Assembly: GCA_018241025.1 (NCBI GenBank) | Contig: JAFEEQ010000009.1 | Coordinates: 8,065-72,064, forward strand | Direction: 5' to 3' | DNA from: Pseudomonadota bacterium | GTDB taxonomy: Bacteria; Pseudomonadota; Alphaproteobacteria; Micropepsales; Micropepsaceae | DNA: 64,000 bases | In this document: positions 24,640 through 58,156 of the stretch, piece after piece | How positions within the stretch are numbered: position 1 is the stretch's first letter | Layout: each line of letters begins with the position of its first letter | Made by a program: the position numbers and the translations under genes | Notes under the pieces: model-generated | Told to the model about the DNA's origin: nothing | Database searches by the model: none | Seen by the model: only the letters and a program-made list of their open reading frames with translations

Positions 24640-24709
24640 GTTCACGCGGAGACGCGGAGGCGCGGAGATGCGCTCCGATCCTCCGCGTCTCCGCGCCTCC
24701 GCGTGCCAA
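24640..24709 (-). mobile_element. Gene-less (MITE-like) derivative of the GxxExxY element, family B
   Basis: 25-bp (CGCGGAG)x3 arms with a 13-nt spacer; same TTGG/AAC ends as 25699-26148 but inverted. Confidence 0.75.
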
Positions 24710-24716
24710 TACTTCA

Positions 24717-25664
24717 ATGAAGATATTTCGCCACGTCTCCGATGTCACCGACGCCTATAAGGGCGCGGTCGTGGCCGTGGGCAATTTCGACGGCGTCCAT
24801 CTCGGCCACCAGGCGCTGATCGGCGAAGCCCGCCGCATGGCGGAGGAGCGCGGCGCGCCGCTCGCGGTGCTCGCCTTCGAGCCGCATCCGCAGGAATTTT
24901 TCCGCCCCTCGCCGGTGCCGTTCCGCCTCACGCCGTTCGCGGTGAAGGCACGGCTGATCGAGAGCCTCGGTGTCGATGTGCTCTACGCGCTCCACTTCGA
25001 CGCGGCGCTGGCCGAGAAGAGCGCCGAGGATTTCATCGCCGAAGATCTCGTCGGCGGCCTCGCCATTGGCGCCATCGTTGTGGGCGCGGATTTCCGGTTC
25101 GGCAAGGGCAGGGCAGGCAACGTCGCGATGCTCTCCTATATGGGCGAGATGGAAGGCTTCGGCGTCACCGTGTTCGAGCCGGTGATCGCGCATGGCGACG
25201 ACAAGGTGTCTTCGACCGAGATCCGCACCGCGCTGAAAGAGGGCCGGCCCGATGTCGCCGCACGCCTGCTCGGGCGGCCGTGGAGCATCGAAGGCAAGGT
25301 CGAGCATGGCGACAAGCGCGGCCGCACCATCGGCTATCCGACCGCGAATATGCGCCTGACGGACACGCTGTTGCCGGCCTATGGCATCTATGCCGTGCGC
25401 GCGAAGATCTTCGATGCGCAGCATGCGCTGGTTTCGACGCACGACGGCGTCGCCAATTTCGGCATCCGCCCGATGTTCGAAACCCCGACGCCGATGCTGG
25501 AGACGTTTCTGTTCGATTTCAGCGGCGATCTCTACGATAGACATCTCGCCATCGACTTCATCGCCTACATCCGCCCCGAAGCGAAATTCGACTCGATGGA
25601 CGCCCTGATCGCGCAGATGGACAAGGACAGCGAAGCGGCGCGGACAATTCTGCGACAAAGCTGA
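24717..25664 (+). CDS. ribF: Bifunctional riboflavin kinase / FAD synthetase
   Basis: GNFDGVHLGH, GADFRFG, GRTIGYPTAN, YIRPEAKF. Confidence 0.97.
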   Translation: MKIFRHVSDVTDAYKGAVVAVGNFDGVHLGHQALIGEARRMAEERGAPLAVLAFEPHPQEFFRPSPVPFRLTPFAVKARLIESLGVDVLYALHFDAALAEKSAEDFIAEDLVGGLAIGAIVVGADFRFGKGRAGNVAMLSYMGEMEGFGVTVFEPVIAHGDDKVSSTEIRTALKEGRPDVAARLLGRPWSIEGKVEHGDKRGRTIGYPTANMRLTDTLLPAYGIYAVRAKIFDAQHALVSTHDGVANFGIRPMFETPTPMLETFLFDFSGDLYDRHLAIDFIAYIRPEAKFDSMDALIAQMDKDSEAARTILRQS

Positions 25665-25692
25665 CATAAGCTCTCTCGACAGGGAGGCTGCA

Positions 25693-26169
25693 ATGGATTT
25701 GGCACGCGGAGGCGCGGAGACGCGGAGTGGGCTGGAGTCGAAGGCGCTCGACGACGTTACGGGTGCAATCGTCGATGCCGCGTACAAGTTGCACGTCGTG
25801 CTCGGTCCCGGACTTCTGGAGTCAGTCTACGAAGCGGTATTGGCGCGCGATCTCGCGCGCCAGGGATTCACCGTCGATCGGCAGCGCTCGGTGTCCTTCG
25901 AATATGATGATCTTCGCTTCGAAGACGCGTTTCGTGTCGATCTCCTGATTAACAATTCCGTGGTGGTCGAGATCAAGTCTGTCGAGCGGGATGCGCCGGT
26001 ACACGCCAAACAGCTCCTGACCTATTTGCGGCTTCTCAAACTCCCGGTGGGCCTCCTTATCAACTTCGGCCGGCCGACGCTGAAAGAAGGCCTCACGCGT
26101 GTCGTGAACCGCCTGGCGCCCTCCGCGTCTCCGCGCCTCCGCGTGAACCAACCACCGCTTGCCGGGTAG
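25693..26169 (+). CDS. GxxExxY protein (PD-(D/E)XK nuclease-like)
   Basis: LGPGLLESVY motif, RVDLLI, VVEIKS, QLLTYL, GLLINFG. Confidence 0.93.
   Translation: MDLARGGAETRSGLESKALDDVTGAIVDAAYKLHVVLGPGLLESVYEAVLARDLARQGFTVDRQRSVSFEYDDLRFEDAFRVDLLINNSVVVEIKSVERDAPVHAKQLLTYLRLLKLPVGLLINFGRPTLKEGLTRVVNRLAPSASPRLRVNQPPLAG
25699..26148 (+). mobile_element. Candidate autonomous element: GxxExxY core between perfect 25-bp inverted repeats
   Basis: CACGCGGAGGCGCGGAGACGCGGAG (25703-25727) is the exact reverse complement of 26121-26145. Confidence 0.7.
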
Positions 26170-26347
26170 ACTGGACCCGTTCCCGCCCCCCTGTTAGAAC
26201 CTCCGCACCGATTTGGCGGGTTAGAAGGCAAATGCTTGATTTCGCGCGTCTTTCGCGAATTCGTCACCCGGCTTCGCGCCGGGCGTAATGCCGCGCGCGG
26301 AGGCCGGGCCGCATGACCCATCCAACCCCGCGAAAGCCTTAAGAGAC

Positions 26348-57903: not shown

Positions 57904-57941
57904 CACTGGCGTTTTTTGCCACGCCATGCAGCCAACCACCT

Positions 57942-58156
57942 TCACCATGGCCGGCCTCCGAGCCGGCCACCCAGCAGGCGCGCGTCCGCGCGCCAATGAC
58001 TCGGCGTTAGCGGAACGGTAAATGTTCACGCGGAGACGCGGAGCCGCGGAGGTTCGAGTTCAACTCCGCGGCTCCGCGTGAGTCCTTTAGTGGCGCTTCG
58101 CGCCTGCTGGGTGGCCGGGGTCGCAGCAACAGTATGGCGACGCCCGGCCACGGTGA
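57942..58156. repeat. REP-like element, family E (CATGGCCGG...CCGGCCA), with a nested family B element
   Basis: Perfect 20-bp IR 57963-57982 / 58099-58118; outer IR TCACCATGGCCGG / CCGGCCACGGTGA. Confidence 0.85.
58024..58080. mobile_element. Gene-less family B (GxxExxY-type) element with a truncated arm
   Basis: ATGTTCACGCGGAGACGCGGAG is identical to 24638-24659; right arm CTCCGCGGCTCCGCGTG. Confidence 0.7.

Follow-up and report, generated by a model that had tools for sequence, protein, structure and literature searches.

What is the relationship between a small nuclease gene and the palindrome in which it lies? The question arises from a 64,000-nucleotide stretch of the Micropepsaceae (Alphaproteobacteria) contig JAFEEQ010000009.1, assembly GCA_018241025.1; this whole stretch is termed the window. 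Between ribF and ileS it carries a gene of the GxxExxY family whose core is held between the two arms of an inverted repeat, and hairpins with the same arms and no gene lie elsewhere in the window. We judge the chances to be about even that the gene and these palindromes, which are built of short repeated words, form a cognate nuclease-repeat partnership, with a logic like that of REPIN-RAYT or Ssn-NTS and a nuclease of Cas4/RecB-like fold. The features required for the argument are as follows.

25693–26169, + strand: GxxExxY / PDDEXK_3 nuclease gene, assigned by the PF13366 and TIGR04256 profiles; conserved core at about residues 20–139.
25681–25686, + strand: Shine-Dalgarno sequence GGGAGG, read from the sequence, 6 nt before the ATG at 25693.
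25699–25727, + strand: left arm, TTGG and CA followed by CGCGGAG(G), CGCGGAG(A) and CGCGGAG; part of the N-terminal extension.
26121–26148, + strand: right arm, the exact reverse complement of 25703–25727 and then AAC; a C-terminal tail in translation.
24640–24709, no strand assigned: gene-less hairpin in the spacer between a MaoC-like dehydratase gene and ribF; arms 24643–24667 and 24681–24705 with a 13-nt spacer.
58024–58080, no strand assigned: gene-less hairpin with three units on the left and two on the right, at the center of a larger mosaic of palindromic modules (57940–58140).

The gene is an intact open frame of 158 codons (25693–26169, + strand). The left arm CACGCGGAGGCGCGGAGACGCGGAG occupies 25703–25727 and its exact reverse complement 26121–26145; allowing two mismatches, the inverted repeat around the gene reaches 30 nt. 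Each arm consists of three 8-bp steps, a step being the 7-nt word CGCGGAG plus one variable, free base. The open frame begins with an ATG 10 nt before the left arm and has its stop codon 21 nt past the right arm, so both arms are translated, as ARGGAETR and SASPRLRV. An earlier note, made from the letters of the window alone, had described the perfect 25-nt repeat and its translated arms correctly. In several relatives the start codon follows the left arm, and there the purine-rich units would themselves act as the Shine-Dalgarno sequence.

The 158-amino acid protein matches PF13366 (PDDEXK_3) with E = 4e-36 and 124 bits (cut-off 22) over profile positions 2–117 of 117, and TIGR04256 (GxxExxY protein) with E = 1e-36 and 126 bits (cut-off 35). 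PF13366 is its sole Pfam match, and the GIY-YIG domain cd10448 that marks Ssn is not found in it. The catalytic-type residues are intact: the E of GLLESVYE, the D of RVDLL and the E-x-K of VEIK. On alignment of 10 sequences from the genus, E24, E74 and K76 are invariant and D64 is present in at least 90% of the rows. An AlphaFold model from ten genus sequences has a pLDDT of 92. Its nearest solved folds are Cas4 SSO0001 (PDB 4ic1) and lambda exonuclease, alike at the level of the fold (TM 0.5–0.6, E = 2e-3). A search of defense-system profiles gave only a marginal, weak match to Cas4, and a sequence search of the PDB with the nuclease found no relative. The gene product is predicted to be a minimal Cas4/RecB-like PD-(D/E)XK nuclease of the GxxExxY family. 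Searches with the exact nuclease and RibF sequences returned no other assembly, and hence no near-identical strains.

The hairpin at 24640–24709 is indeed a gene-less copy of the repeat that bounds the cassette, by which we mean the gene together with its arms. It has the opposite orientation and both ends in common with the cassette (29 nt at the TTGG end, and 28 nt with two mismatches at the GTTC end), with the 13-nt spacer between its arms. The DNA fold of this hairpin has a calculated energy of −32 kcal/mol (z = −7). The truncated third copy at 58024–58080 was also correctly recognized in the earlier note. CGCGGAGnCGCGGAG doublets occur 11 times in the window, where 0.48 would be expected.

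The family extends through the genome. The assembly that contains the window (G000; window at C34:8065–72064; 4.12 Mb, 64% G+C) has exactly one PF13366 gene by profile search, and 14 gene-less palindromes of the CGCGGAG family plus one degenerate solo arm; gene-bearing and empty copies thus number 1 and 14. The gene-less form is (G/A)(T/A)TT-CA-CGCGGAG(n)CGCGGAG(n)CGCGGAG, a loop of 3–13 nt, and the mirror image. The loops are semi-conserved, of the type GTTGAGTTCAA. All gene-less copies are intergenic, frequently between co-directional genes. The genome-wide consensus of the ends, (G/A)(T/A)TT-CACGCGG ... CCGCGTG-AA(T/G)C, corrects one detail: the outer TTGG and AAC, taken earlier for asymmetric ends, rather belong, as variant forms, to an inverted end that extends slightly further. 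Between the two arms the free eighth base is complementary in some copies and not in others, so it appears to be the words that are conserved and not perfect pairing. None of the 15 genome copies has a target-site duplication or any direct repeat; the flanks continue the inverted symmetry.

We examined the generality of this arrangement in 61 genomes of the same genus, one genome per species; several of the assemblies are fragmentary, and breaks may fall at these repeats. PF13366 genes are present in 15 of the 61, and inverted arrays with two to five steps of 8–9 nt bracket nearly all of those that are intact. The word follows the protein. Proteins from the genus at least 61% identical to that of the window all have C[GA]C[GA]GAG arms and form a clade with 100/100 support, and those about 40% identical have CACTGAG, GCAGTGGAC, CACAAAG or CCACGACG. 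The G051 protein is 75% identical to that of the window, yet its 25-nt arms are identical to the letter. Cassettes of the CGCGGAG clade occupy at least seven unrelated loci in the genus, including ribF-ileS and nrdR-ribD.

The word also matches the dispersed repeats of the host genome. Where a genome has a gene of this clade, at least six CGCGGAGnCGCGGAG doublets are found in 11 of 12 cases, compared with 9 of the 49 genomes without one (Fisher 4e-6, not fully corrected for phylogeny). A second word family behaves likewise. TGAGGCRGTGAG is present in 28, 11 and 13 copies in G002, G008 and G011 respectively, and in 0–2 copies in the other 58 genomes (Fisher 2.8e-5, again not fully corrected for phylogeny). 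G002, G008 and G011 are precisely the genomes, three of the 61, whose GxxExxY genes bear the TGAGGCRGTGAG arm type. Their sisters in the ribF tree lack TGAGGCRGTGAG, so common ancestry does not explain the match between gene and repeat. Arm sequence therefore co-varies with both the protein clade and the dispersed hairpins of each genome, the second of these being the co-variation that the earlier note had proposed to test.

The same layout is found far outside the genus. A scan across phyla, again with one genome per species, gave 592 relatives, from which the best 80 were kept, 75 of them with both flanks. These 80 come from Verrucomicrobiota, Chloroflexota, Gemmatimonadota, Planctomycetota, Acidobacteriota, Bacteroidota, Cyanobacteria, Deltaproteobacteria and others. 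An inverted repeat of their own (score ≥16) flanks 67% of the 75, compared with 6.8% for mispaired flanks, a control itself inflated by shared words. A strict layout of words pointing inward on the gene (> gene <) is present in 33 of the best 80. All the words are of the type C[GA]C[N][N]AG with a TCACGC end. GxxExxY genes are thus generally flanked by inverted repeats, most of those in the 61 congeners and two-thirds of the 75 relatives, as the earlier note had supposed. Verrucomicrobiota, Chloroflexota and Gemmatimonadota have proteins 65–78% identical to the alphaproteobacterial ones, encoded between the same TCACGCGGAG arms, which indicates that gene and arms are transferred together.

An alignment of 69 cassettes provides a lead to the basis of specificity. 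Core residues 4–5 are [ST]G with ....GAG words and AK with ....AAG words, i.e. they differ with G or A at word position 5 (mutual information 0.8 bit). Residue 70 (R, or K/L) tracks word position 4 in these 69 cassettes, taken with no phylogenetic control. Residues 4–5 and 70 are candidate specificity residues.

The history of the window copy can be followed at the ribF-ileS junction, where the right limit of the inserted DNA is set by the following feature.

26171–26200, + strand: ileS promoter-like sequence CTGGAC-N15-TGTTAGAAC, the right limit of the inserted DNA; it stands directly after the ribF stop codon in cassette-free congeners.

A cassette lies between ribF and ileS in G000, G055, G004 (two tandem copies) and G023. 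The cassette is missing from at least 16 congeners, as anticipated; there the ribF stop codon comes directly before CTGGAC...TGTTAGAAC or ahead of inserts of an unrelated kind, and an empty hairpin is seen at none of these junctions. The ribF tree divides the carriers among three lineages, all of which have sisters that lack the cassette. Four of the five ribF-site copies are broken, that of G000 alone being intact with perfect arms. Frameshifts have broken the copies of G055 and G023, and in G023 the right arm has also decayed through C-to-T changes. In the tandem pair of G004 (L027, contig C5), one copy has Gly in place of the catalytic Asp and arms that are degenerate, and the other is frameshifted; half-arms and mini-hairpins follow. 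The decayed arms of the broken genes in G023 and G004, against the perfect arms of the intact gene in G000, indicate that arms and gene decay together.

G055, the nearest species, keeps a partly decayed orthologue of the 24640–24709 hairpin. Both the cassette and the upstream hairpin are therefore common to the two species, and by this comparison the insertion between ribF and ileS in the window, although it remains intact, is old and has been inherited vertically. Of the gene-palindrome system proposed in the earlier note, the belonging together of gene and repeat (one copy against 14) stands; this copy itself is no recent jump. The gene tree places the window protein as sister to a second, intact G055 copy at another locus (site A; support 96/86), not to the syntenic pseudogene, and this is suggestive of replacement of the ribF-site copy from another locus, at an approximately unbiased (AU) p of 0.14, which is not significant. 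A single clade of all ribF-site copies is rejected (p = 0.005) in a post hoc comparison that involves a long branch. Where occupied sites in congeners are compared with empty sites in G000, the intergenic DNA is too diverged to fix the boundaries of insertion.

Gene-less hairpins also come and go at orthologous sites. We compared their presence and absence between species only, and found polymorphism at ribF-ileS, ffh-rpsP and ilvI-ilvH. A CGCGGAG hairpin is present between ffh and rpsP in G000 and absent from its four closest relatives (RpsP 90–96% identical). The same junction has CGCGGAG hairpins with different interiors in G004, G048 and G021, and a hairpin of a further word family in G002. 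In G010 the hairpin there is built of CACAAAG, the word also found in the arms of that genome's GxxExxY gene. Between ilvI and ilvH in G000 (C2:77449–77592) a 190-nt mosaic with a central CGCGGAG hairpin replaces the ancestral TGATG stop/start overlap that is kept in G049 and G068. A comparable mosaic that lacks the hairpin occurs in G006 and G069. In G000 ilvH has a new ATG start downstream of the mosaic.

Moreover, the palindromes are nested. We sampled 11 CGCGGAG palindromes in G011 (L153–L163), and 10 of these enclose a complete inner repeat. Nine of the inner repeats are word palindromes of CACAGAG, CAGTGAG or CGCCAAG, eight of the nine also with a GC-rich mini-hairpin; the tenth is the mini-hairpin alone. 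The inner CACAGAG and CAGTGAG words resemble the arms of resident GxxExxY genes and CGCCAAG matches none of them; the outer CGCGGAG family has no gene in this assembly. For these 11 loci, from a fragmented assembly, the nesting would fit an innermost repeat that is the youngest and the active one. The GC-rich mini-hairpin lies between the gene and the right arm in five cassettes and is also found alone elsewhere. In the CAGTGAG family (G011, G002 and G008) the short copies keep the mini-hairpin seen in the cassettes, a hint that these short elements may be deletion derivatives of cassettes. Junction turnover and nesting together indicate repeated insertions that prefer gene ends and the centers of palindromes.

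Nesting runs both ways between repeat families, since the loop of the CGCGGAG hairpin at C9:106658–106826 in G000 holds a 122-nt insert of the GGCCGGCC-type family of palindromic modules. Further inverted modules flank five of the 14 G000 hairpins, compared with <1% of random sites. The hairpins are usually central in mosaics of mirror order (window 57940–58140, C12:53400–53700, C14:1650–1950 and C2:77380–77590). The modules of these are CCATGGCCGGCC..GGCCGGCCACCC hairpins and GCGCGCG-N3-4-CGCGCGC mini-hairpins, an arrangement like that of bacterial interspersed mosaic elements (BIME) or RIME. Another palindrome family (CCTCCCC..GGGGAGG, with internal GGTGGGGGG) is found at ribF-ileS and ffh-rpsP in other congeners (L028, L037, L046, L169, L173, L175 and L177). 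Judging by these occurrences, the two junctions appear to be general hot spots for palindromic repeats. We also note that a perfect 29-nt inverted repeat (24681–24709 and 25699–25727), formed by the right arm of the upstream hairpin with the left arm of the cassette, brackets the whole of ribF, and is a potential substrate for inversion of this essential gene.

The comparisons thus directly support the architecture and its generality, the match of the word to protein clade and to genome, co-transfer across phyla, gain and loss at junctions, nesting, and the decay of arms with the gene. How might this come about? Most likely the protein recognizes the phased words; we infer in addition that it cleaves them, and that the repeats move through such activity. 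The protein, probably multimeric, would read phased words of its own arm type and would cut the palindrome or DNA close to it, the substrate being a duplex end or else a hairpin, extruded or single-stranded. Such cutting would let palindromes be copied to new places with or without the gene, and new copies would favor spots just outside gene ends and the centers of other palindromes. The palindromes appear to behave as slow, persistent intragenomic replicators, of which the gene-bearing cassette would be the autonomous form. In its boldest version, which we offer tentatively and rather doubt, GxxExxY proteins are the sole enzymes of an unrecognized pan-prokaryotic class of mobile elements of ~0.45 kb with lineage-specific 7-nt words, which mobilize themselves and gene-less palindromes, build nested mosaics, and have a word specificity programmable by a few residues.

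A number of observations weigh against a partnership of this kind. The earlier note had held that abundance of the repeat where the gene is missing would speak against it, and in part this is what we find. G020, G056 and G018 carry 69, 22 and 18 doublets of the CGCGGAG repeat respectively and no PF13366 gene; the assemblies of G056 and G018 are near-complete (50 and 20 contigs), and that of G020, in 300 contigs, has a completeness of 91%. The repeat can therefore persist where the gene is missing. In G011, 58 CGCGGAG doublets are present while the three GxxExxY genes bear other arms. Co-variation of the arms with the protein clade would follow from physical linkage by itself, and the correlation of residue with word has only two supported independent contrasts. 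The gene-less CGCGGAG copies have only the arms in common with the cassette, their GTTGAGTTCAA-type loops having no counterpart in it, and consequently an origin by internal deletion is at most a possibility for this family. Neither a target-site duplication nor an excision scar is present at the copies examined. No move is seen over a short time scale, the cassette and the neighboring hairpin both being present in G055, and in the gene tree the separation of the syntenic copies falls short of significance (AU p = 0.14). Lastly, the Cas4 fold match is weak (E = 2e-3, TM 0.5–0.6).

The alternative that survives best, although we consider it unlikely, is a host nuclease resembling Ssn, site-specific and possibly single-strand-specific, with the word hairpins as its recognition sites and the repeats spreading by other means. 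It would serve to limit recombination or transformation, or to process intermediates of replication or repair, and the flanking sites would derive from autoregulation or history. There is a published precedent in the Ssn family itself, which has the same layout, with homologues that each cut their own variant and hundreds of genomic copies (PMC11893778). The evidence for partnership is equally compatible with such a function, and the window copy is old and vertically inherited, with the gene in single copy. Yet gene and arms cross phyla as a unit and occupy at least seven loci within one genus. The free decay of the cassette, with four of five ribF-site copies broken, fits selfish DNA better than a host function, and nesting at palindrome centers and the recurrent colonization of junctions need an insertion mechanism.

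The position of the gene exactly at the loop raises a second possibility, which we regard as distinctly improbable. The hairpins might be independent, generated by another mobilizer or by replication errors, and the nuclease genes might be passengers of homing type that cut the center of a palindrome and are copied into the loop. Other elements also land in hairpin centers, as in the nesting of G011 and at C9:106658–106826 in G000; several genomes have gene-free hairpins, and cassettes of one clade occupy different sites. The ribF-ileS junction argues otherwise. At least 16 cassette-free junctions are without any hairpin, so the arms came with the gene. Arms of 25 nt would moreover offer little homology for repair-mediated copying, and gene and arms have been transferred together across phyla.

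The element might lastly act in RNA, with the arms pairing in the transcript, much as in the ORF-bearing intervening sequences of 23S rRNA, as a 25-bp stem that closes the open frame for RNase III processing or translational control, the GGAG units Shine-Dalgarno-like and the other arm anti-Shine-Dalgarno-like, and the gene-less hairpins serving as mRNA stabilizers or terminators. The predicted stems are strong, the cassette is co-directional between ribF and ileS, hairpins occur within operons (ffh-rpsP, ilvI-ilvH), and GGAG or GAGG units stand immediately before the start codon in several relatives. We consider this very unlikely, since the other word families (CGCAAAG, CACTGAG, CGCCAAG) are not Shine-Dalgarno-like, the often non-complementary free eighth base argues against selection for perfect pairing, no Rfam family is matched, and clade-specific words, dispersal and nesting are left unexplained.

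Two known classes were rejected as candidates. A RAYT was discarded as the mobilizer, because no Y1/RAYT (PF01797) gene is present in G000 or in the repeat-rich G051, G055, G020 and G056. A known RNA family was looked for with Rfam, and none matched.

The partnership of nuclease and palindrome that we favor has relatives among characterized systems. REPIN-RAYT systems comprise REP doublets and a single-copy REP-associated tyrosine transposase (RAYT) (PMC3116915, PMC3337134, 10.1101/2021.07.10.451892). There, as here, a single-copy enzyme gene is flanked by inverted copies of a dispersed hairpin repeat, and the repeat family is specific to the enzyme lineage. The two are also alike in a long life with largely vertical inheritance and low activity, and in repeats that outlast loss of the enzyme. 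However, the enzyme here is a PD-(D/E)XK nuclease and not a Y1/HUH (IS200-like) transposase, the arms are two to four phased 7-nt words where REP is tagged with GTAG/CGTC, the gene is placed within a single palindrome, with a reading frame that often runs through the arms, and the cassette is often transferred between phyla and often decays.

The Ssn enzymes are GIY-YIG site-specific nucleases of single-stranded DNA that are associated with NTS/SRM repeats (PMC11893778). Again a small stand-alone nuclease gene has its own hairpin-forming repeat on both sides and many genomic copies of it, and repeat variants track enzyme variants. The folds differ (GIY-YIG cd10448 for Ssn, PD-(D/E)XK PF13366 here), as does the repeat, a single hairpin motif there and an array of words here. 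Ssn activity has been demonstrated, whereas the GxxExxY partnership is known from sequence comparison. Nesting and the gene-in-loop geometry are not reported for Ssn (PMC11893778).

Comparisons with other elements go less far. Like miniature inverted-repeat transposable elements (MITEs) and insertion sequences (IS), the palindromes have terminal inverted repeats that bound a gene or a minimal interior, their short copies outnumber the gene-bearing one, and they insert into the centers of other palindromes. IS elements can target palindromic units, an example being the insertion of IS1397 into those of BIMEs. Unlike MITEs and IS elements, there is no target-site duplication, no known transposase family, and an enzyme of only ~120 amino acids, and the interior of the short CGCGGAG copies has no counterpart in the long copy. 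Cas4/RecB (SSO0001) and lambda exonuclease are the best structural matches of the predicted core, with a weak Cas4 profile match; the protein here is about half the size, with no Fe-S cluster domain and no CRISPR context, and the likeness is one of fold only. The element differs from the ORF-bearing intervening sequences of 23S rRNA in lying between protein-coding genes and not in an rRNA helix from which RNase III would remove it. It differs from a homing endonuclease gene in that no uninterrupted target hairpin exists at the 16 or more cassette-free ribF-ileS junctions.

Two further features of the junction concern its borders.

25652–25658, + strand: GCGACAA motif within the last ribF codons (…LRQ); such ribF codons are found only in cassette-bearing species.

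Nine of the 25 genus cassettes have GCGACA(A/T)A ~100 nt before the nuclease core (~15-fold enriched), in different word families and at unrelated sites; besides that of the window, the loci noted are L002, L005, L007, L011, L018, L019, L057, L058 and L060. We rejected GCGACAA as a general boundary of the cassette, because the enrichment is specific to the genus and is not found upstream of cassettes across phyla. Within the genus it may be the true left boundary of the inserted DNA, or part of a promoter. On the other side, the region upstream of ileS (26171–26340) is conserved in the genus. It consists of CTGGAC-N15-TGTTAGAAC and then a leader with a stem TTCGCGAATTCG..CCCGGCT.CGCGCCGGG, and has no Rfam match; it is possibly a promoter plus an uncharacterized leader or attenuator.

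The GxxExxY family is listed in a survey as of unknown function and subject to multiple transfers (PMC3424549). The full-text literature on GxxExxY, PF13366, PDDEXK_3 and TIGR04256 yielded incidental mentions only, and we found no description of a pairing of repeat and nuclease for PF13366 in the searchable literature; in this respect too the earlier note, which knew of no description of the association, appears to have been right. For another fold, that of Ssn, the literature already contains the general design of a small nuclease gene between copies of its own dispersed hairpin (PMC11893778). New here are the fold of the enzyme, the arms made of word arrays, the placing of the gene within its palindrome, and the nesting.

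No function has been assigned to PF13366/TIGR04256, a very large family whose members occur in bacteria, archaea and viruses. The clade-specific pairing with words leads to a first testable function for it, sequence-specific recognition of phased heptamers. It would be the third enzyme, mechanistically different from RAYT and Ssn, that lives with its own intragenomic repeats. The partnership may explain part of the nested mosaic repeats between genes in Alphaproteobacteria and other phyla, and if the specificity is modular the family could yield small programmable DNA-recognition nucleases.

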